Source: Eubacteriales bacterium (GTDB lineage: Bacteria > Bacillota > Clostridia > Oscillospirales > CAG-272). From it: a stretch of DNA of 64,000 nucleotides. The DNA lies in the NCBI GenBank assembly GCA_045658965.1, contig JAZOVZ010000106.1, positions 3,618 through 67,617 of the forward strand. The letters are read 5' to 3'. Position numbers and translations under genes: made by a program. The notes under the pieces are model-generated. The model had not been told where the DNA came from. It was given only the letters and a program-made list of their open reading frames with translations, and ran no database searches. Below are positions 55,188-64,000 of the stretch, one piece after another (position 1 is the first letter of the stretch; every line of letters starts with the position of its first letter).

Positions 55188-56447
55188 ATGTCATCGTACA
55201 GCGAGCTGATCAAGAATTTTGAAAAGATCCGCGCCTATATGCGTGATTTTTACGTATACGGCTTCAAGCGCCGCGACGATTATCAATCCAAAAGTGCACG
55301 CTCCTATGACGACGAGCGCCGTCGCATGGAAAGCTGGCTGGGCGAGCACATGAGCTTTGTTCGCACGCCCGAGGGCAAAAACGTGTTCATTTCCATCGAC
55401 AGCCGCACCATCAGACACAACCCGCTGTACAATGCGTGGAAAGCGAAAAGCTTTACCGATGGCGATATTACGTTGCATTTCATCATCTTTGATATTCTGT
55501 ACGAGCCATCCGTCAAGCGAACGATATCCGAATTGCTTGCAGAGATCGACGAGAAATATCTCTCCGGCTTTGAAAGCCCCCAGATGTACGATGAATCTAC
55601 GCTGCGCAAAAAGCTCAAGGAATACTGCGAGGCGGGCATCATCGAAACGGAAAAGCAGGGTCGCAAGGTATATTATCACAGAACCGAAAGCACCGAAGTT
55701 GCCGATCTTGACGACGTCCTGCACTACTTTTCCGAGGTAGCACCCTGCGGCGTGATCGGCTCGTTTATACTTGACAAAGAGGACTCTGACACCGAGACAT
55801 TCACGTTCAAGCACCATTACATCACAGGTGCCATCGACAGCGGCGTGCTCGCCTCACTCTTTACAGCCATGCGCGAAAAGCGTGCAGTCACGCTCTCTAA
55901 TCTGCGAAGAAACGCCGATATGCCGCGCCGCTTGCGTGTCGTGCCCCTGCGCATTTTCATCAGCGTGCAGACAGGCAGACAGCATCTGCTTGCCTACCTG
56001 CCCGCCTATAATATCTTCCATTCCTACCGTATCGACTATCTGTCCGGCATCAAGCTCGAAGACCCCACGCCCCGCTTTGACGAGCTGCGTGCCGAGCTTG
56101 ACCGCATGCAGACAAAGATGTGGGGCGTGATCACAAGCCGCAACAAATGGGGTAAGGAGCAGCTGGAGCACGTGGAATTCACCGTGAAAATCGGCAAGGA
56201 CGAACAGCATATCGTAAGACGCTTGGAGCGAGAAAAGCGCGTTGGCAAGGTGGAGCAAATCGACGAGCACACCTACCGCTTCTCTGCTGAAGTATACGAC
56301 TCGGGCGAGCTGTGCCCGTGGATCAGAACCTTTATCTGCCGCATTGCGCAAATGAACTTCTCCAACCGCACCGTGGAAAACCGCTTCAAGCGGGATTTGG
56401 AGGAGATGTACATGCTCTACGGCATCGAAAAGGAGGCGGACGAATGA
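55188..56447 (+). CDS. wHTH + WYL + WCX domain regulator (WYL protein 1)
   Basis: 419 aa. Winged-helix segment (LRKKLKEYCEAGIIETEKQGRKVYYHR). WYL core (RLRVVPLRIFISVQTGRQHLLAYLPAYNIFHSYRIDYLSGIKL). C-terminal WCX-like segment (HVEFTVKIGKDEQHIVRRLEREKRVGKVEQIDEHTYRF). Confidence 0.7.
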   Translation: MSSYSELIKNFEKIRAYMRDFYVYGFKRRDDYQSKSARSYDDERRRMESWLGEHMSFVRTPEGKNVFISIDSRTIRHNPLYNAWKAKSFTDGDITLHFIIFDILYEPSVKRTISELLAEIDEKYLSGFESPQMYDESTLRKKLKEYCEAGIIETEKQGRKVYYHRTESTEVADLDDVLHYFSEVAPCGVIGSFILDKEDSDTETFTFKHHYITGAIDSGVLASLFTAMREKRAVTLSNLRRNADMPRRLRVVPLRIFISVQTGRQHLLAYLPAYNIFHSYRIDYLSGIKLEDPTPRFDELRAELDRMQTKMWGVITSRNKWGKEQLEHVEFTVKIGKDEQHIVRRLEREKRVGKVEQIDEHTYRFSAEVYDSGELCPWIRTFICRIAQMNFSNRTVENRFKRDLEEMYMLYGIEKEADE

Positions 56448-57355
56448 TCTTTTCCGAGCTTTATTCAGCCTATTACCGCACGGTTGCCGCCATACTGTCG
56501 GCAATCTTAGACGGTGAGCAAAACGAAAAGGCACTGCAGGACATCGTCGTGGGGCATGCGTTCGGTGAGAGTGTGCTGACCATTCTGCCCGCGCTCAAAA
56601 CAGAGAAATGGCAGCTTGTGCACGCCGATATGACCACACCCATCCGACACAAGCCCACTCTTCCCCTGACCATGCTGCAAAAGCAGTGGCTCAAGGCAAT
56701 TTCTCTTGATCCTCGCGTGCAGCTGTTCGGTGTGGATTTTCCCGATCTTGGGAACGTAGAGCCGCTTTTCACCCCTGCGGATTATCACGTATATGATAAA
56801 TACGGCGACGGTGACCCTTACACCGATCCCGAGTACATCCGCCAATTCCGCGTCATTCTGAGCGCGATTCAAAACGGCTCGCAAATCAAATTCAACATGG
56901 TCAACCGCAAGGGCAACACCATGTACGTCAGATGCCGCCCCGTGCGTTTGGAATACTCCGAAAAGGACGACAAATTCCGTGTGATCACAGCAGGCTGGCG
57001 TGCGGTATCCACCGTCAATCTTGCAAAAATACAGAACTGTGCGCATTATCAAGGCACGCAACAAGTCAAGGGGCAGGAACGAGAGGAGCTGTATGATACC
57101 GTGACGGTCAAGATCCGAAACGAGCGCAACGCCCCCGAGCGATTTTTGCTCAACTTTGCGCACTTTGAAAAGCAAACCGAAAAGCTTGACAAAAAGCACT
57201 ATCAGGTAAGGATCAGATACCCCTTGAACGATCAGCCCGAAATGGTCATCCGTATGCTCTCGTTCGGTCCCATGATCGAGGTCACAGAGCCCGAAGCTTT
57301 TCGCGCACTCATGATCGAAAAGCTGAAAAAACAGTTGGATTGTAAATTAAAGTAA
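56444..57355 (+). CDS. WYL + WCX domain protein without obvious HTH (WYL protein 2)
   Basis: Start at ATG 56444 in an ATGA overlap with the upstream stop. WYL core (MYVRCRPVRLEYSEKDDKFRVITAGWRAVSTVNLAKI). WCX-like end (MVIRMLSFGPMIEVTEPEAFRALMIEKL). Confidence 0.7.
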   Translation: MIFSELYSAYYRTVAAILSAILDGEQNEKALQDIVVGHAFGESVLTILPALKTEKWQLVHADMTTPIRHKPTLPLTMLQKQWLKAISLDPRVQLFGVDFPDLGNVEPLFTPADYHVYDKYGDGDPYTDPEYIRQFRVILSAIQNGSQIKFNMVNRKGNTMYVRCRPVRLEYSEKDDKFRVITAGWRAVSTVNLAKIQNCAHYQGTQQVKGQEREELYDTVTVKIRNERNAPERFLLNFAHFEKQTEKLDKKHYQVRIRYPLNDQPEMVIRMLSFGPMIEVTEPEAFRALMIEKLKKQLDCKLK

Positions 57356-57356
57356 C

Positions 57357-57390
57357 AAAAAGCCCTCATCCGAGGGCTTTTTGTTGTTTT
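57357..57390 (+). terminator. Rho-independent terminator after the WYL pair
   Basis: AAAAAGCCCTCatccGAGGGCTTTTTGTTGTTTT. Confidence 0.8.
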
Positions 57391-57405
57391 CGCAGCTTTT
57401 TTTCC

Positions 57406-57434
57406 GTGAAAAACGGTGCGCGGAATGGTAAAAT
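57406..57434 (+). promoter_or_regulatory. Putative promoter of the rtcB operon
   Basis: GTGAAA, 17-nt spacer, TGgTAAAAT (extended -10). A small palindrome CCGTgaaaaACGG overlaps the -35 and is a possible operator. Confidence 0.4.
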
Positions 57435-57450
57435 ATGCTTGAAAGGAGGG

Positions 57451-58518
57451 ATGATGATGTGGCTCTTCCCTAAAAAGCAAAATAAGTTTATCCTTGGGCG
57501 CAAAAGAAAAGCCGCGCTTGCACAGCTGCAAAAGGCGTTCCCTGCCGAATGCGCCGAAGACGTGCGGATTGTGTTCTTCTCTCTCATCTCAACCGCAGAA
57601 GTCCCGCGAAATGAACTCACCTTTTTCTTTGATCACATCACCGATTGGCAACTGCCCTCGGGCGAGTGCATCACGCTTCCCTATCGCATTTACATACGCG
57701 ACGAGCTGCGCCTCGGATGCAAGTTGACCGAGCAGCAGCAGATCATCTGGCATTGCATCGGTTCCAGAAGCCACAACGGCTACGTGCGCCAGCGACACAT
57801 CCAAGCCCTGCTTGCCACCGACCTGCCCGAATGGGCACTTCCCTATATCATCAAGATCTGCGACGAATACGTCATAGAGATCTTAAAGATCGTATATGCA
57901 TCGCTTTCAGGGCGCAACTGCACCGCATATAAGCGCATCTGCGCACTCAACTTTGATTATATCAAGCTCGGGCACAGCCGCATGATCAGTTACTGGAACG
58001 AATATTACAGGTGGGATTGCTATCAATACAGCGAATACATCGGTAAAAAGCTGTACCGCGAATGCTTCGGCTTCAGCAAAACCGGGCAAAAGACCATCAT
58101 ATTCAAGGAGGAGGAAGTTTACACAATGACACTCAAAGAATTTGAACAAAAGTGGCTCTCCATCTTTGCCAAAGACATTCCCAAAAAGCAGTTGGAAGAA
58201 TACGTGAGCGGTCGTGGCGGTTACATCTGGCATATCTTTTCCTGGGATTTGATGCCTAAGGACAGGTATCTGACCGGTGATGCCGCTCGCCAGGCCTATG
58301 ATACTCTTCCCTGTTATGCAAGAGAATCTGCTTTATTTATCGAACCCTTTGGCAGCAAACGCCCCGAAACATTTTCCTTAGCCTTACACCAATCCGATGC
58401 ACGTGCGCTGGACGAACGCGTGGAAATATTCGTCGTAGCTAAAGACTTTTCATGGACGTATATCAAAACACATGAAAATAACTGGTGCGGACCTTATTTC
58501 TACTGTAAAAAGCAGTAA
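57451..58518 (+). CDS. Two-part hypothetical protein (about 355 aa); C-terminal half resembles small DUF4275-like proteins
   Basis: Triple ATG at 57451-57459 directly after AGGAGGG. An internal in-frame ATG at 58126 has its own AGGAGG. The C-terminal part has GGYIWHIFSWD...WTYIKTHENNWCGPYFY. No enzymatic motif recognised. Confidence 0.55.
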   Translation: MMMWLFPKKQNKFILGRKRKAALAQLQKAFPAECAEDVRIVFFSLISTAEVPRNELTFFFDHITDWQLPSGECITLPYRIYIRDELRLGCKLTEQQQIIWHCIGSRSHNGYVRQRHIQALLATDLPEWALPYIIKICDEYVIEILKIVYASLSGRNCTAYKRICALNFDYIKLGHSRMISYWNEYYRWDCYQYSEYIGKKLYRECFGFSKTGQKTIIFKEEEVYTMTLKEFEQKWLSIFAKDIPKKQLEEYVSGRGGYIWHIFSWDLMPKDRYLTGDAARQAYDTLPCYARESALFIEPFGSKRPETFSLALHQSDARALDERVEIFVVAKDFSWTYIKTHENNWCGPYFYCKKQ

Positions 58519-58550
58519 TCACTTCCCCTTGGTCACGAAAGGAGCACATC

Positions 58551-59018
58551 ATGATTTTTCATCTTACCAACTTCATACTTGACGTTGACGTCGAGCGCAC
58601 GCGCGCCTTTTATGAGCGCACCGACGTGCCCACCACGAGCCAAGGATGCTCCTGCGAGGGCTGCCAAAACTTTGATAAAGCAATTTTAACCGTGCCTGCC
58701 ACCGTGACCGAATTCTTGCAATCGCTCGGCATCGATCCCCAAAAGCCGATAGAAGCCTATAGCGTTACGGGAGAACGTGAACCGGACGGCACGATCTTGT
58801 ATAACGGCTGGTATCACGTATGCGGAAAGGTGGTACAGTGGCCGAAATTTGAACAAACCGAAAATCGCCTTTCCTACAGCCGGGAGGATGGCTACCGCCC
58901 CGATCCCACGTTCCGCTTTGATATCATTGCCGTTCCCACGGTGGATCTGGCGCACAAGCAGATGCCCACACCCATCATCCAGTTGGATTTTGATACGTAT
59001 CTTCCCTATTTGCTATAA
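58551..59018 (+). CDS. Hypothetical protein (155 aa, CxCxxC motif)
   Basis: Good SD (AAAGGAG). Contains SQGCSCEGCQNF. No recognisable family. It sits between the unknown gene and rtcB with 21-32-nt gaps. Confidence 0.55.
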   Translation: MIFHLTNFILDVDVERTRAFYERTDVPTTSQGCSCEGCQNFDKAILTVPATVTEFLQSLGIDPQKPIEAYSVTGEREPDGTILYNGWYHVCGKVVQWPKFEQTENRLSYSREDGYRPDPTFRFDIIAVPTVDLAHKQMPTPIIQLDFDTYLPYLL

Positions 59019-59039
59019 CCATGAAAGGAGTTCCATACA

Positions 59040-60248
59040 ATGTTAGAGATTATCGGAGCATATAACACCGCCAAGTGCTTTGCCACCACCATTGACGAGG
59101 GTGCGCGCGAGCAGATCAAGCAGGTTTGCGACGCCGAAGCGTTTGCATCCGCCAAGATCCGCATTATGCCTGACGTGCACGCCGGCAAGGGCTGCACCAT
59201 CGGCACGACCATGACCGTCACCGACAAGATCGTACCCGCCATGGTGGGTGTGGACATCGGTTGTGGCATGTATACGGTATATCTTGGCAATATTGATATC
59301 GATTTTGAAAGAATGGATGAGGCAGCGCACGCGATTCCCTGCGGCATGAAGGTATGGGAGGGCAGACAGGAGCGATTTGACCTGACCGCCCTGCGCTGCT
59401 ACAGAAGCTTAAAGGACTCCAAAAGACTGGAGCGCAGCATTGGAACTTTGGGCGGTGGCAATCACTTTATCGAGATTGACGTGGACGACGCGGGCGGCAA
59501 ATACTTAGTCATCCACTCGGGCAGCCGCAACCTTGGCACGCAGGTTGCACATCACTATCAGCACCTCGCTTATGAGCTTAACTTGGGCAAGGAGGAATAT
59601 TTCAAGCAGCGCGACGAGATCATTCGCACCTATAAGGAGGCGGGCAGACGCACCGAGATCCAAAGCACACTCAAGGCACTTGAAAAGGCGTTCCATGCGA
59701 GGATGCCTACCCTGCCCGAAGATCTTTGCTACCTCTACGGCAGCTTTATGGACGATTATCTGCACGACGTGGATATCTGCCAGCAGTTTGCTGAGCGCAA
59801 CCGCGCCAAGATGGCAGAGATCATTCTGGACCGCATGGGCTGGACGGCAATCGAATCCTTTCAAACCATTCACAACTACGTGGATGTGCACGAAATGATC
59901 CTGCGCAAGGGCGCGGTGTCGGCAAAAGCGGGCGAAAAACTGCTCATTCCCATCAATATGCGTGACGGCAGCTTGATCTGCATTGGCAAGGGCAACGAGG
60001 ATTGGAACTTCTCCGCTCCTCACGGCGCAGGTCGTTTGCTCTCACGCACCACCGCCTTTGAGCAGCTGACTATGGCAGAATATGAGCGCGAGATGGCAGG
60101 CATCTACTCCACCTGCGTCGTCCCCGACACCTTGGACGAGTCGCCCATGGCGTATAAGAGCATGGACGAGATCGTGGAGAACATCGAGCCCACCGCCGAG
60201 ATCGTCTGCAGAATCAAGCCCCTCTATAACTTCAAGGCGGCGGAGTGA
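59040..60248 (+). CDS. rtcB: RtcB-family RNA 3'-phosphate/2',3'-cyclic-phosphate ligase (short about 400-aa form)
   Basis: 402 aa. Contains IRIMPDVHAGKGCTIGTTM, GVDIGCGM, GGGNHFIEIDVD, HSGSRNLG and SAPHGAGR (His nucleophile region). Confidence 0.9.
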   Translation: MLEIIGAYNTAKCFATTIDEGAREQIKQVCDAEAFASAKIRIMPDVHAGKGCTIGTTMTVTDKIVPAMVGVDIGCGMYTVYLGNIDIDFERMDEAAHAIPCGMKVWEGRQERFDLTALRCYRSLKDSKRLERSIGTLGGGNHFIEIDVDDAGGKYLVIHSGSRNLGTQVAHHYQHLAYELNLGKEEYFKQRDEIIRTYKEAGRRTEIQSTLKALEKAFHARMPTLPEDLCYLYGSFMDDYLHDVDICQQFAERNRAKMAEIILDRMGWTAIESFQTIHNYVDVHEMILRKGAVSAKAGEKLLIPINMRDGSLICIGKGNEDWNFSAPHGAGRLLSRTTAFEQLTMAEYEREMAGIYSTCVVPDTLDESPMAYKSMDEIVENIEPTAEIVCRIKPLYNFKAAE

Positions 60249-60263: not shown

Positions 60264-60470
60264 ATGAAAATTCCAATCAACAAAGAACATCTCGAATATT
60301 TGCAAAACAACGGCATTGACGTTTTGCAGGTCTTACAAGACAATGATCTTGATTTAGTGTTAGAAATCATCGACGACGCAATCGTTGATGACATTGTAAA
60401 TAATCACGATAAAATAACAACGCACGGTATTTATTTGCAAAGAATTTATGATCAGATAGCACAATTATAA
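60264..60470 (+). CDS. Small acidic hypothetical protein (68 aa)
   Basis: AT-rich ORF 15 nt after rtcB and followed by a terminator. D/I/V-rich (DNDLDLVLEIIDDAIVDDIVNN). Coding status is uncertain. Confidence 0.4.
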   Translation: MKIPINKEHLEYLQNNGIDVLQVLQDNDLDLVLEIIDDAIVDDIVNNHDKITTHGIYLQRIYDQIAQL

Positions 60471-60486: not shown

Positions 60487-60516
60487 CAGGAGATCCCAAA
60501 TGGGATCTCCTGTTTC
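60487..60516 (+). terminator. Rho-independent terminator of the rtcB operon
   Basis: CAGGAGATCCCaaaTGGGATCTCCTG + TTT. Confidence 0.8.
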
Positions 60517-60597
60517 GAGGGGTACTCACCTGCGGCGAGAATACCCACGCCCTGCGCCTGGAGAATGCCCCACTTCGCGGGTCGCTCTCCGATCTTC

Positions 60598-60768
60598 GGG
60601 CAGAGGGATTCTGAACCCATGTTTGCGCTAACAGCTTTTATAACTGCTTACTCGTCCTGCGCAAACCAACATGTCGCGGCTTGCGCCGCTCATGCGAGGT
60701 TCTCATCGGGGCTCTCCCACCACGATACAAAAGGAAACCCACCGCGCTGCGGTGGTTTTCCTTTTGTA
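60598..60768. repeat. Structured repeat unit A (divergent copy) ending in terminator hairpin 60729-60765
   Basis: It shares with B and C: CAGAGGGATTCTGAACCC, the stem GTTTGCGC/GCGCAAAC, and the hairpin CATGTCGCGGCTTGCGCCGCTCATG. The 30-nt loop and the 3' segment differ. It lacks the GCCTCCGCCA end. Confidence 0.75.
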
Positions 60769-60944
60769 TGGCGGAGGCAGAGGGATTCTGAACCCTTGTT
60801 TGCGCAATGGGCGTTGAGAACCGTTTACCTACCCTGCGCAAACCAACATGTCGCGGCTTGCGCCGCTCATGCGGGGTTCGAATCGATACACTATCACGAT
60901 AAAAACAAAAGGAGATCCCTAAAAAGGATCTCCTTTTGTTTTTA
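60769..60944. repeat. Structured repeat unit B (176 bp) ending in terminator hairpin 60907-60937
   Basis: The minus strand ends ...AAGGGTTCAGAATCCCTCTGCCTCCGCCA next to the preceding terminator. The plus strand contains GCGGGGTTCGAATC. Confidence 0.8.
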
Positions 60945-61121
60945 TGGCGGAGGCAGAGGGATTCTGAACCCTTGTTTGCGCTAATGGGCGTTGAGAACCG
61001 TTTGCCTACCCTGCGCAAACCAACATGTCGCGGATTGCGCCGCTCATGCGGGGTTCGAATCGATACACTATCACGATAAAAACAAAAGGAGATCCCTAAA
61101 AAGGATCTCCTTTTGTTTTTA
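60945..61121. repeat. Structured repeat unit C (177 bp) ending in terminator hairpin 61084-61114
   Basis: Differs from unit B at only 3 positions (one 1-nt indel and two substitutions). Confidence 0.8.
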
Positions 61122-61195
61122 TGGCGGAGGCAGAGGGATTCGAACCCCCGTGGGGAAGCCCCAAACGGTTTTCAAGGCACATTAACCACTCGGAA
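61122..61195 (-). pseudogene. tRNA-Ser(UGA)-like 3' portion (anticodon loop to CCA) lacking a 5' acceptor strand
   Basis: The minus strand reads CCTTGAAAACCGTTTGGGGCTTCCCCACGGGGGTTCGAATCCCTCTGCCTCCGCCA. This gives a UGA anticodon-loop half, a GGGG/CCCC variable arm, a canonical GGGGG-TTCGAAT-CCCTC T-arm, a 3' acceptor strand and CCA. No GGAGGCA lies upstream and the anticodon stem is unpaired. Confidence 0.6.
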
Positions 61196-61423
61196 ATTAG
61201 AGAATTTTAGAGGAAGATATCAGACGATAAAAGACGCTGAAACCCCAGTGTTTACAAGGGTTTTCGGCTCTTTTTTGTTCGAACCTCGAAAAATCCCTTA
61301 CGCCATAAGGGATACCGATTTCTAAAAATATTTCTAAAAATTTTTTAGAAATTCTTTTAGAAATGCACCCCCGTTTGTGTGGATGCTTTCGGGGCGGTTG
61401 TGCTCCGAAAGCCAAACACAATA

Positions 61424-62173
61424 TCAAAGTAAAGACAGAAAAACCTCGTTCAGCTCGTTCCAGTCGTGAGAATCCTCAGCCGATAATCCTGCGATGATAC
61501 CTTCGATCTCCTCAATGTTGCGATCCAAATAATCGTTGACACGGTCGAATCGCTTGCCCTCGCCGATCTCGGGCATATTCATTTTCATATCAAGCAGCTT
61601 CTCAACGTCGGGCTTCAGATCATCGTCAAGATACTTATCCATAAGCGTGCGGAACAGCATCGGTGGTGGTGTGCCTTCTGCAAGGATCCATTTGCACGCA
61701 AGCAGCGGACGAAGCACATAAAAATACTTTTTCAGCCTTACCGTTTCACCCTTCAGATATTCGCGATAGTTGCTCTTGGCTGTGCTGAGATAGTGGTAAA
61801 GCCCCGACTTCGCTACAAAGTAGCGGTTAATAATAGCGGATATCTTCTGCCAATCCTCAGTCGTCTTATATACGATGGGAGAGGAATTCCACTCGAACAG
61901 TGTCGGATTTGATTTGTGAAGCAAAGTCAGTGCTTTCTGAACATCCCATCCGTTGATATCCAGCGTATCATCCAACTGCCATTCGATAACGTCGCGAGTC
62001 TTGTCGAGGCGCAAATAGAACTCCTTGGGGCGAACGTATATGAAACGCACGTCGTAGTCGCTGTCAGGCGAGGCAAAGCCCCACGCCCGGCTTCCCGATT
62101 CGATGCAGTGCAGAATTTTTATGTTTTCTCGTTTCTCGATCTCATCAAGCTTTTCAAGAATCGTTTCTCTCAT
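61424..62173 (-). CDS. RlaP/COG3541-type Pol-beta-superfamily nucleotidyltransferase (RNA-repair-associated family)
   Basis: Start at ATG 62173 after GGAAGGAGGG. ILHCIESGSRAWGFASPDSDYDVRFIYVRP carries the GS..D.D NTase signature and matches my memory of PF10127. About 250 aa. Confidence 0.7.
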   Translation of the reverse strand: MRETILEKLDEIEKRENIKILHCIESGSRAWGFASPDSDYDVRFIYVRPKEFYLRLDKTRDVIEWQLDDTLDINGWDVQKALTLLHKSNPTLFEWNSSPIVYKTTEDWQKISAIINRYFVAKSGLYHYLSTAKSNYREYLKGETVRLKKYFYVLRPLLACKWILAEGTPPPMLFRTLMDKYLDDDLKPDVEKLLDMKMNMPEIGEGKRFDRVNDYLDRNIEEIEGIIAGLSAEDSHDWNELNEVFLSLL

Positions 62174-62484: not shown

Positions 62485-63363
62485 ATGGCTATGACTACAA
62501 AACAAGCCGCCGAGAAATGGGGCATCTCCGACAGACGTGTCCGTACTCTCTGCGTTAACGGGCAAATTGACGGCGCATGGCGCGAGGGCAAACTCTGGTT
62601 TGTTCCCGATAACGCTCCCAAGCCTGCCGATGGACGCATTCGCGGAAAGGAAACCCTTCTCGCCCAGATCGAAAGAAAGAAAATCGAACTCGACGGTCGC
62701 AGACCGCTCACCGAGGGTGAAGTGGCGCGTCTGAACGAGGACTTCATGATTGAATATACCTACAATTCCAACGCCATCGAGGGCAACACGCTGACCTTGC
62801 GCGAAACAGATATGGTTCTCAAAGGCCTGACCATCGATCAGAAGCCTTTGAAGGATCATATGGAAGCAGTTGGCCACAAGGACGCATTCTACTACATCTG
62901 CGACCTGGTCAAGGAACGTACTCCCCTGTCGGAGACCGTGATCAAACAGATTCATGCGCTCGTGCTTGCCGACAAACCGCTTGACCGCGGCGTGTACCGT
63001 AAAGTGCCGGTTCGCATCATGGGCGCAAAGCAAGACCCTGTGCAACCGTACTTGATCGAAGCAAAGATGTTTGATCTGATGCAGCAGTACGCCACAGACG
63101 AGCGGTGCATCGTGGAAAAGCTTGCCGATCTGCATATCGCGTTTGAGTCCATCCATCCTTTCATCGATGGCAACGGCAGAACCGGCCGCCTGATCGTCAA
63201 CCTTGAACTGATGAAGGCCGGCTATCCCCCCATCGATATCAAATTCACCGACAGAATGCGTTATTACGACGCCTTCGACCACCGCGAGGACATGGTAAAG
63301 CTGTTCGCGGAGTATCTAAATAAGCGATTGGATCAGTATTTAGAAGTATTAGAGAACAACTAA
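62485..63363 (+). CDS. Fic-family protein with N-terminal HTH and internal inhibitory-helix motif
   Basis: Fic motif HPFIDGNGRTGRL. SNAIEGN matches (S/T)xxxE(G/N). N-terminal TTKQAAEKWGISDRRVRTLC is HTH-like. The 278-aa antisense ORF is a shadow. Confidence 0.85.
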   Translation: MAMTTKQAAEKWGISDRRVRTLCVNGQIDGAWREGKLWFVPDNAPKPADGRIRGKETLLAQIERKKIELDGRRPLTEGEVARLNEDFMIEYTYNSNAIEGNTLTLRETDMVLKGLTIDQKPLKDHMEAVGHKDAFYYICDLVKERTPLSETVIKQIHALVLADKPLDRGVYRKVPVRIMGAKQDPVQPYLIEAKMFDLMQQYATDERCIVEKLADLHIAFESIHPFIDGNGRTGRLIVNLELMKAGYPPIDIKFTDRMRYYDAFDHREDMVKLFAEYLNKRLDQYLEVLENN

Positions 63364-63481
63364 TCCTTCATCTTCTCCCCACGAACAGCAATTCGACGGT
63401 CTGAAAGAGATTATAGGGAGAAGAATGGGAATTAAACTAAAAGAGACTCAACAAACAATAAAAAATCAAATGGAGGCTATT

Positions 63482-64000
63482 ATGAGCACTTTGGAAATAA
63501 AGAAAAACAACCAAGGAAAAATATATTCTTTTATTAGAGACGATTATTTTGTATGTACTCCTGAGGAGGAAGTTCGTCAAAACTTAGTGTGCAAACTTGT
63601 CAACGATTTTGGCTATCCTCTTAGCTTAATGGCTGAAGAATACAGACCTGATATGGAAACTCGAGGTGTCCGCTCAACAAGAGCCGATATTGTGATTTTT
63701 GAAACAGAAGAAAAGAAAGTGAATAATCACAATGCCTTTATCGTTGTTGAGTGTAAAGCAGAAAATGTTAGAATTCGTTTGGAGGATTTCTATCAGGGGG
63801 CGGAATATGCCGCAAAAGTGCGCGCTCAATTTTTGGTGTTGCACAATTCAAAAGAAACTAATTTTTATGCAGTTGATATAGATAAAATTCCAAACAAAAA
63901 AGATGCATTTACACAGATCATTGCAATTCCCCACTATAATGATATTGGTGATGCAAAGAAAATAGAAACCATAAAAAAGCAAACAAAAACATTTACCCGT
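63482..64000 (+). CDS. HsdR_N (type I restriction enzyme R-protein N-terminal)-like domain protein, truncated by window edge
   Basis: The frame is open from ATG 63482 (SD GGAGG 6 nt upstream) to the window end, so it is not in the ORF track. Contains EEVRQNLVCKLVNDFGYP...RADIVIF...AFIVVECKAENV (PD-(D/E)xK-like core). About 35% GC. Confidence 0.6.
   Translation, partial: MSTLEIKKNNQGKIYSFIRDDYFVCTPEEEVRQNLVCKLVNDFGYPLSLMAEEYRPDMETRGVRSTRADIVIFETEEKKVNNHNAFIVVECKAENVRIRLEDFYQGAEYAAKVRAQFLVLHNSKETNFYAVDIDKIPNKKDAFTQIIAIPHYNDIGDAKKIETIKKQTKTFTR

Follow-up and report, generated by a model that had tools for sequence, protein, structure and literature searches.

What are the tandem, structured repeats that lie between the rtcB and rlaP genes on contig JAZOVZ010000106.1 of a Eubacteriales bacterium? 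In the 64,000-nt stretch of DNA analyzed here (the window), three units of about 176 bp (A, B, and C) and a shorter fragment (D) stand between the RtcB ligase gene and the gene of the RlaP nucleotidyltransferase, and each carries a 3′ portion of a serine tRNA on the minus strand. An earlier note on this DNA had offered two readings: (i) tRNA-mimic or tRNA-3′-half-like noncoding RNAs linked to RtcB and RlaP; and (ii) stacked attachment (att) scars at tRNA-Ser. The second was found to be essentially right, as D is the 3′ part of a tRNA-Ser(UGA) gene cut at a recurrent island junction and the units occur only in the 3′ flank of that gene. The repeats form the scarred flank 3′ of a serine tRNA gene in which mobile islands land, and scars of this sort are commonplace in genomes. 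As to how the scar arose, we consider it likely that the locus is a tRNA-Ser(UGA) integration hot spot, at which D is the att junction of an island and units A to C are decayed, att-flanked remnants amplified by recombination.

Fragment D and the island that begins beyond it

Fragment D was identical over 55 of 55 nt to positions 34-88 of the intact tRNA-Ser(UGA) genes of three related loci (L007, L009, and L013) and comprises the anticodon loop, variable arm, T arm, acceptor strand, and CCA. The earlier note had correctly taken D for a tRNA-Ser 3′ end, but it had recognized only the T arm and acceptor strand and had extended the fragment to position 61195; the tRNA part is the full 55 nt from the anticodon loop onward and occupies 61122-61176, while 61177-61195 is foreign island DNA. 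The break falls at the 5′ edge of the anticodon loop, and the foreign DNA beyond it replaces the 5′ 33 nt of the gene. At the homologous position, six related assemblies of gut or rumen Clostridia (L005-L009 and L013) have an intact tRNA-Ser(UGA). Two of these are near relatives of the window (L008 and L013; rtcB DNA 93% and RtcB protein 98% identical) and display the empty site, with rtcB, a unit, the intact tRNA gene, and yjbR in succession and no island.

The junction itself is recurrent. The tRNA-side sequence ...TTTTCAAG breaks at the same base in the window and in seven further loci (L014, L015-17, and L018-21), of which L015-17 represent a sister species (RtcB identity 86%) and L018-21 are four metagenome contigs. 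In those loci the ~210 bp past the break (61177 to ~61390 in the window) are 89-93% identical and are joined to a tRNA-Ser 3′ half. The island loci differ in their tRNA-Ser 3′ halves (GGAGGCAGAGGG, GGAGGGAAAGGG, and GGAGGGAGTGGG), in their host flanks, and in their cargo, which includes RlaP, Fic, and an HSDR_N open reading frame (ORF) in the window; Fic alone in L019; a Dam methylase and DUF6339 in L020; HTH_17 and a type I restriction-modification (R-M) system in L014; and HTH_3/DUF3990 in L017. The conserved island end also holds a terminator-like hairpin, and its ATTTCTAAAAA-type repeats are plausible candidates for recombinase arm sites. Because D is an exact part-copy of the tRNA gene, the site is empty in relatives, and the junction recurs in independent hosts, D is very probably the att junction of an inserted island with defense cargo; a recurrent junction combined with an empty site is what is classically seen when an element integrates site-specifically into the anticodon loop of a tRNA gene.

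Two tRNA-Ser 3′ fragments of different sequence types are stacked at L014 (11507-11545 and 13104-13158), with NERD and other genes between them, which is direct evidence of tandem island accretion at a tRNA-Ser locus. With respect to cargo, homologues of the window's helix-turn-helix (HTH)-Fic protein (90-93%) were found immediately ahead of type I R-M operons, in chromosomal surroundings that are unrelated (L022-L028); the Fic homologues P0246 and P0266 have other settings, a type I R-M operon and a site beside a ribosomal-protein operon, and no island end was detected there. Fic appears to travel with R-M cargo, and the cargo of the window island comprises RlaP, HTH-Fic, and a likely type I R-M system.

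Anatomy of the tandem units

Tandem Repeats Finder described 60599-61147 as 3.1 copies of a 177-bp period (87% matches, score 754), which bears out the tandem, structured units of ~176 bp as three units plus fragment D. The motif GCGCAAACCAACATGTCGCGG was detected exactly three times, with none expected by shuffling, and GGAGGCAGAGGGATTC four times, with 0.5 expected. Units B and C were identical at 174 of 177 positions (98%; two substitutions and one indel), in agreement with the three differences counted before, and units A and B at 129 of 181. Read in the direction of the tRNA, a unit consists of a strong bidirectional terminator, an interior of ~105 nt, and a 26- to 27-nt copy of the tRNA from the T loop to CCA that includes an extra base (GATTC-T-GAACCC). 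This extra T-loop base had been reported for B and C and is carried by A as well; the T loop of D is canonical. In unit A, the tRNA 3′-end copy (GGCAGAGGGATTCTGAACCC, 60599-60618) is truncated inside the acceptor strand. The terminators, each a G+C-cored hairpin between A- and T-runs, were as the earlier note had described them, except that the perfect stem in B and C is 18 bp long and not 12 bp; that of unit C is the one positioned directly after the tRNA-Ser 3′ end.

Both the 8-bp stem and the CATG..GCGG/CCGC..CATG hairpin attributed to all units are indeed present. The loop of the 8-bp stem in unit A, once described as completely different, was instead of the same length as that of B and identical to it at 16 of 29 positions, with about 20 of 29 positions identical to L007 by hand alignment. 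The A-type loop is a diverged homologue of the B loop and does not replace it.

Examination of the interiors of B, C, and the L007 unit revealed two blocks derived from tRNA-Ser, which are inverted relative to the tRNA and, on the plus strand, collinear in tRNA order: (i) TTGA(A/G)AACCGTTT, corresponding to the anticodon loop and 3′ stem (tRNA-Ser segment TTGAAAACCGTTT); and (ii) GGGGTTCGAATC, corresponding to the T-stem and T-loop, whose occurrence on the plus strand of B and C had been noted correctly. The block score of these interiors was reached by 0 of 500 shuffles for B and for L007 and by 1 of 500 for C. With these blocks, the units are mosaics that combine pieces of the tRNA gene with other DNA. 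No tRNA homology was found in stem 1, hairpin 2, the A-type loop, or any interior of two further unit families (F2 and F3, below), and a likeness between the ATCGTGATAGTG segment and the tRNA D-arm was too faint to be relied on.

The units accompany tRNA-Ser(UGA)

The distribution of the units was examined by scanning 185,579 species genomes with the unit-specific 20-mer GGCAGAGGGATTCTGAACCC, which spans the tRNA end and the extra T-loop base. Five loci were identified among these species representatives, all in metagenome-assembled genomes (MAGs) of Clostridia/Eubacteriales, and at all five an intact tRNA-Ser(UGA) is followed directly, on its 3′ side, by the unit or units, oriented as on the minus strand of the window. 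A sixth unit-bearing locus, L013, was reached through the closest RtcB homologue (98% protein identity) and has the order rtcB, terminator, one unit, intact tRNA-Ser(UGA), and yjbR; exact look-ups of the RlaP, RtcB, and Fic proteins of the window found no record. The units were directly 3′ of tRNA-Ser(UGA) in six of six other loci (L005-L009 and L013) and, with the window included, gene-less segments bounded by direct repeats of the tRNA 3′ end lie 3′ of that gene in seven of seven.

The units track tRNA-Ser and neither rtcB nor rlaP. Contrary to the possibility raised earlier that copies always stand beside these two genes, rtcB was absent in four of the six other loci (L005, L006, L007, and L009, where the neighbors are abhydrolase, TrkH, leucine-rich repeat/sigma-70, and YjbR genes) and rlaP was absent in all six. 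The rtcB loci of the sister species (L015-17) have a tRNA fragment followed by a plain terminator and no units, and units were likewise missing from the tRNA-Ser loci L015-21. Homologues of RlaP occur in many unrelated neighborhoods; four loci anchored on RlaP (L001-L004) shared no neighborhood and contained no unit motif, and RlaP is therefore no anchor for the repeats. In addition, the empty-site relatives (L008 and L013) have no rlaP, nor does L019, whose otherwise collinear island end proceeds straight to Fic. The adjacency of rlaP and rtcB in the window results from insertion of the island into a tRNA gene beside a chromosomal rtcB.

Copy number varied from one unit (L007, L008, and L013) through ~1.4 (L009) and two to three (L005) to the three of the window. 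By their unrelated interiors the units fall into three families: F1 (window, L007, L008, L009, and L013), F2 (L006), and F3 (L005), such that the copies of L005 belong to a different family from those of the window. The expanded T-loop copy is common to all three families, and F1 and F2 also share GCGGGGTTC..ATCG after a hairpin. That the expanded T-loop copy adjoins different interiors suggests a site-specific core common to the families. Loops of the A and B types, 3′ parts, and terminators were found to be shuffled among loci; together with the copy-number variation, such shuffling is consistent with unequal crossing-over and gene conversion acting on long direct repeats. Repeats of the first ~26 nt of the tRNA and of the anticodon arm (CAAACGGTTTTCAAGAC) were also observed 5′ of the intact tRNA-Ser, in L005 (gene at 1386-1474), where they are in tandem, and in L007 (1832-2040), indicating that both flanks of the tRNA-Ser gene accumulate tRNA-fragment repeats.

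Structure and expression signals of the units

A tRNA finder and the Rfam models did not favor an RNA gene: ARAGORN predicted no tRNA gene in the 64-kb window, and two permissive Rfam cmscan searches (E ≤ 10) returned no match to tRNA, Y RNA, YrlA, or transfer-messenger RNA (tmRNA) models. The best Rfam match, Plastid-psbl-rps4, was discarded as the antisense of tRNA-Ser, and matches to ftsZ-DE, sraA, and microRNA (miRNA) families as terminator or hairpin look-alikes far below gathering scores. Only the last 26-27 nt of a functional tRNA are present in the units, and the 5′ acceptor strand is missing, as had been pointed out. No sigma-70-like promoter was found in 60500-61200 on either strand, and a strong terminator precedes every unit. 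The fold z-scores of about -6 on both strands were dominated by the 18- to 21-bp terminator.

Covariation was assessed by counting base pairs on seven F1 units, a set of low power. Compensatory changes were found at 6 of the 18 pairs of the terminator helix, as expected of a working terminator. By comparison, none was found in stem 1 (8 pairs, seven of which never vary and one of which is mismatched in L007) or in the outer helix (11 pairs, with two positions unpaired in A-type units and one further in unit A of the window), and hairpin 2 had one among its 8 pairs, in L007, where the stem is also extended by two pairs. The earlier argument that conserved stems with a replaced loop favor a selected RNA structure did not hold up, since the stems are merely invariant and compensation is limited to the terminators and one pair; the pattern stems from sequence invariance plus one diverged segment, not from covariation.

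Proposed history of the locus and its alternatives

We propose that islands of one family recombine with tRNA-Ser(UGA) inside the anticodon loop or at its 5′ edge. One such island very probably inserted here, with its end starting at 61177; it carries RlaP, HTH-Fic, and a gene resembling those of type I R-M systems and extends past position 64000. A working tRNA-Ser would have been re-formed at the opposite end of the island from a 5′ part contributed by the host and a 3′ part carried by the island. Units A to C would be noncoding DNA remnants and not RNA genes. The first of them may have been left by a decayed att-flanked element, similar to a cis-mobilizable element (CIME), whose recombinase would have used the T-loop/3′-end sublocation; this origin is suggested by analogy. 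The long direct repeats formed by the tRNA end and the terminator would then have allowed copy number to drift by unequal homologous recombination or gene conversion. If the CIME-like origin is true, a parental integrase-bearing element is to be expected with an attP core of GGGTTCAGAATCCCTCTGCC and arms matching the unit interior.

Several observations weigh against this history. No integrase or second att copy was found in the window or the fetched loci, the far end of the island lying beyond both, and no parental element of the units was found. A full-size element with the expanded T-loop core or the unit interior was absent from the viral contigs, the Joint Genome Institute (JGI) metagenomes, and the phage and plasmid collections: the viral contigs gave no match to the unit core, the expanded T-loop copy, or the island end; the JGI metagenomes gave none to the expanded T-loop copy; and in BLAST against the phage and plasmid collections the tRNA half alone was matched. 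The genome scan recovered small units only. Three viral contigs matched the authentic 3′ end of the tRNA, two with tRNA arrays and a third at the contig end with no tRNA predicted by ARAGORN. Furthermore, an identical 20-nt copy expanded by one base (GGCAGAGGGATTC-T-GAACCC) is present in units A, B, and C of the window and in L005 and L006, whose interiors are unrelated, and such a shared copy does not seem to be readily explained by neutral decay; its perfect conservation is in part ascertainment, as the genome scan required the expanded 20-mer. Lastly, hairpin 2 is kept in L007 with its compensatory pair and two extra stem pairs, and L006 has a different hairpin at the same place.

The inverted tRNA-Ser pieces of the interiors and the near-palindromic T-arm would also fit a purely local rearrangement without a mobile element, in which replication slippage or template switching at the quasi-palindromic T-arm generated a partial direct-plus-inverted duplication of tRNA-Ser and terminator that was then amplified in tandem, with the island junction at D an unrelated event. 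The 98% identity of B and C shows that local duplication was recent, and no parental element was found. However, most of the interior has no tRNA homology, all three interiors meet the tRNA copy at one position, a hint of site-specific joining, and the locus demonstrably receives site-specific insertions. We regard a purely local origin as unlikely.

The points listed above that concern the T-loop copy and the hairpins could alternatively be due to selection on a cis- or trans-acting element linked to tRNA-Ser, such as a transcribed 3′-trailer or decoy RNA with a tRNA 3′ end or a pseudo-att landing pad or recombinase-binding module, in which these parts are functional. The expanded T-loop/acceptor copy is common to three families from different MAG lineages; a hairpin of differing sequence is kept directly 5′ (plus strand) of GGGGTTC in F1 and F2; hairpin 2 has changed in a pairing-preserving manner in L007; and tandem amplification has recurred in independent lineages (the window and L005). 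Against this stand the demand of the scan for an exact 20-mer, the rarity of that 20-mer (found in 5 of 185,579 species representatives and in none of the JGI metagenome contigs), the many related tRNA-Ser loci without units (L015-21), and the broken outer helix of A-type units, which like all units have a terminator ahead of them and no promoter. Selection of this kind is in our view distinctly unlikely. The proposal that the units are maintained modules of a so far unrecognized system at tRNA-Ser(UGA), be it miniature att cassettes of a T-loop-specific recombinase family with the expanded T-loop copy as core site or transcribed decoy RNAs with a tRNA-Ser 3′ end, would account for conservation of the expanded T loop, for a hairpin that keeps its position, and for repeated tandem amplification in separate lineages; we hold it to be quite improbable.

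Of the specific RNA functions, that of tRNA-mimic or tRNA-3′-half-like noncoding RNAs working with RtcB and RlaP as substrates, decoys, or regulators, in analogy to YrlA, is contradicted by the data above and is highly improbable. Its appeal lies in the way each unit, on the minus strand, closes with a T-arm-like hairpin that can fold, followed by the acceptor strand and CCA ahead of a terminator, in the low fold z-scores, and in the published finding that RlaP extends damaged RNA 3′ ends by nucleotide addition and assists in restoring tRNA function in vitro (PMC12776372), an activity with no demonstrated tie to the repeats. The distribution already largely refutes it: rlaP is island cargo that is absent from L008, L013, and the island end of L019; units occur without rtcB in four loci; and rtcB loci (L015-17) and RlaP loci (L001-L004) lack units. 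Moreover, no TROVE domain, and hence no rsr, was found among ten neighboring ORFs, no Rfam match was obtained, the z-scores reflect the terminator, the inner helices show no covariation, and no promoter-like site is present. A diversity-generating retroelement (A-versus-B loop mismatches not adenine-specific), integron attC or dif-like sites (consensus absent), an IS110 bridge RNA (of similar length, but the units are not dispersed and have no recombinase gene), and a miniature inverted-repeat transposable element (single locus only) were rejected on inspection of the sequence by eye.

Layout of the window and neighboring genes

The features of the locus are listed in Table 1. The hairpin after rtcB, related in sequence to the terminators of B and C, is probably the outermost terminator of the tRNA-Ser flank. 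rtcB is convergent with the tRNA-Ser gene and provides context only, as it lies outside the repeat system. It ends a cluster at 55188-60248 that encodes a WYL-domain protein, a WCX-domain protein, a DUF4275 protein, a 155-aa protein of no assigned function, and RtcB, and that is also found in L014 and L015-16; this WYL-regulated type of RtcB operon may merit separate study. After rtcB, a 68-aa ORF (60264-60470) has lost ~170 bp by an internal deletion in both close relatives, L008 and L013.

Table 1. Coordinates of the repeat units and adjoining features in the window
Feature	Position	Strand	Remarks
rtcB	59040..60248	+	Last gene of the chromosomal WYL-WCX-DUF4275-hyp-rtcB cluster
Hairpin CAGGAGATCCCAAATGGGATCTCCTG	60487..60512		After rtcB and a small ORF; terminator-like on minus strand; kept in L008 and L013
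Unit A	60593..60768	-	A-type loop in 8-bp stem; hairpin 2; own terminator at ~60727-60767
Unit B	60769..60944	-	27-nt tRNA-Ser T-loop-to-CCA copy with one extra base at 60769-60795
Unit B, stem 1	60798-60805 with 60836-60843		Enclosed loop contains TTGAGAACCGTTT
Unit B, hairpin 2	60847-60871		
Unit B, GGGGTTCGAATC	60873-60884		
Unit B, terminator	60901-60943		18 bp, bidirectional
Unit C	60945..61121	-	Near-copy of B; terminator at 61078-61120
Fragment D	61122..61176	-	3′ 55 nt of chromosomal tRNA-Ser(UGA); 5′ 33 nt lost
Conserved island end	61177..61390	not assigned	ATTTCTAAAAA-type direct and inverted repeats at 61314-61366
rlaP	61424..62173	-	PF10127 nucleotidyltransferase; island cargo
HTH-Fic gene	62485..63363	+	Island cargo
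ORF with type I restriction R-subunit N-terminal domain	63425..64000	+	HSDR_N_2 match, E = 1.6e-22; island cargo; runs off the window

Comparison with known systems

The comparison with YrlA and other Y RNAs encoded beside rsr-rtcBA was based on the proximity of the units to rtcB and on their T-arm-like hairpin. Unlike those RNAs, the units have no Rfam match, no rsr among the neighbors tested, and no acceptor-like closing stem with a 5′ strand; they follow tRNA-Ser, are missing from sister rtcB loci, and, if tRNA-like, would lie on the strand opposite to rtcB. What looked like an RNA-repair cassette of RtcB, tRNA-like RNA, and RlaP is an accident of island insertion, and a false lead is thereby removed. 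The terminators of the units resemble the bidirectional intrinsic terminators found between convergent genes, being A/T-flanked G+C hairpins with six compensatory pairs that stand between rtcB and tRNA-Ser, and differ in that they are repeated three times within an amplified unit.

Closer parallels are provided by the partial tRNA copies (attL and attR) at the borders of islands and prophages integrated in tRNA genes. Tyrosine integrases reportedly fall into classes by sublocation within the tRNA gene, one using the anticodon loop and another the T-loop/3′ end (Williams 2002, Nucleic Acids Res). Fragment D resembles the former in that an exact copy spanning anticodon loop to CCA abuts a conserved element end, with an empty site and intact tRNA in relatives and with a junction that recurs in unrelated hosts with variable, defense-type cargo. 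The units have the shorter identity block, from the T loop to CCA, of the latter; they depart from such att copies in the extra T-loop base and in bounding only ~150 bp of noncoding DNA. The 176-bp mini-units, like the island family, have probably not been described before. The island family defines a recurrent group of gut-Clostridia islands aimed at the anticodon loop of tRNA-Ser(UGA), with RlaP, Fic, type I R-M, and Dam methylase among the cargo, and should be useful for annotating islands and defense systems; the tandem mini-units are a minor oddity, a case of att sites that decayed and were amplified, and do not represent a new kind of system.

CIMEs and tandem accretion are documented concepts (PMC5704250), to which the locus as a whole may be compared. 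The units are far smaller than CIMEs (176 bp) and have no known related functional element, and B and C are so nearly identical that homologous unequal crossing-over is indicated rather than repeated site-specific integration. Nonetheless, like CIMEs, the units lack genes, have direct repeats of the target tRNA's 3′ end on either side, and are stacked in tandem by the tRNA gene beside a larger island, and the stacking of islands is directly visible in L014.

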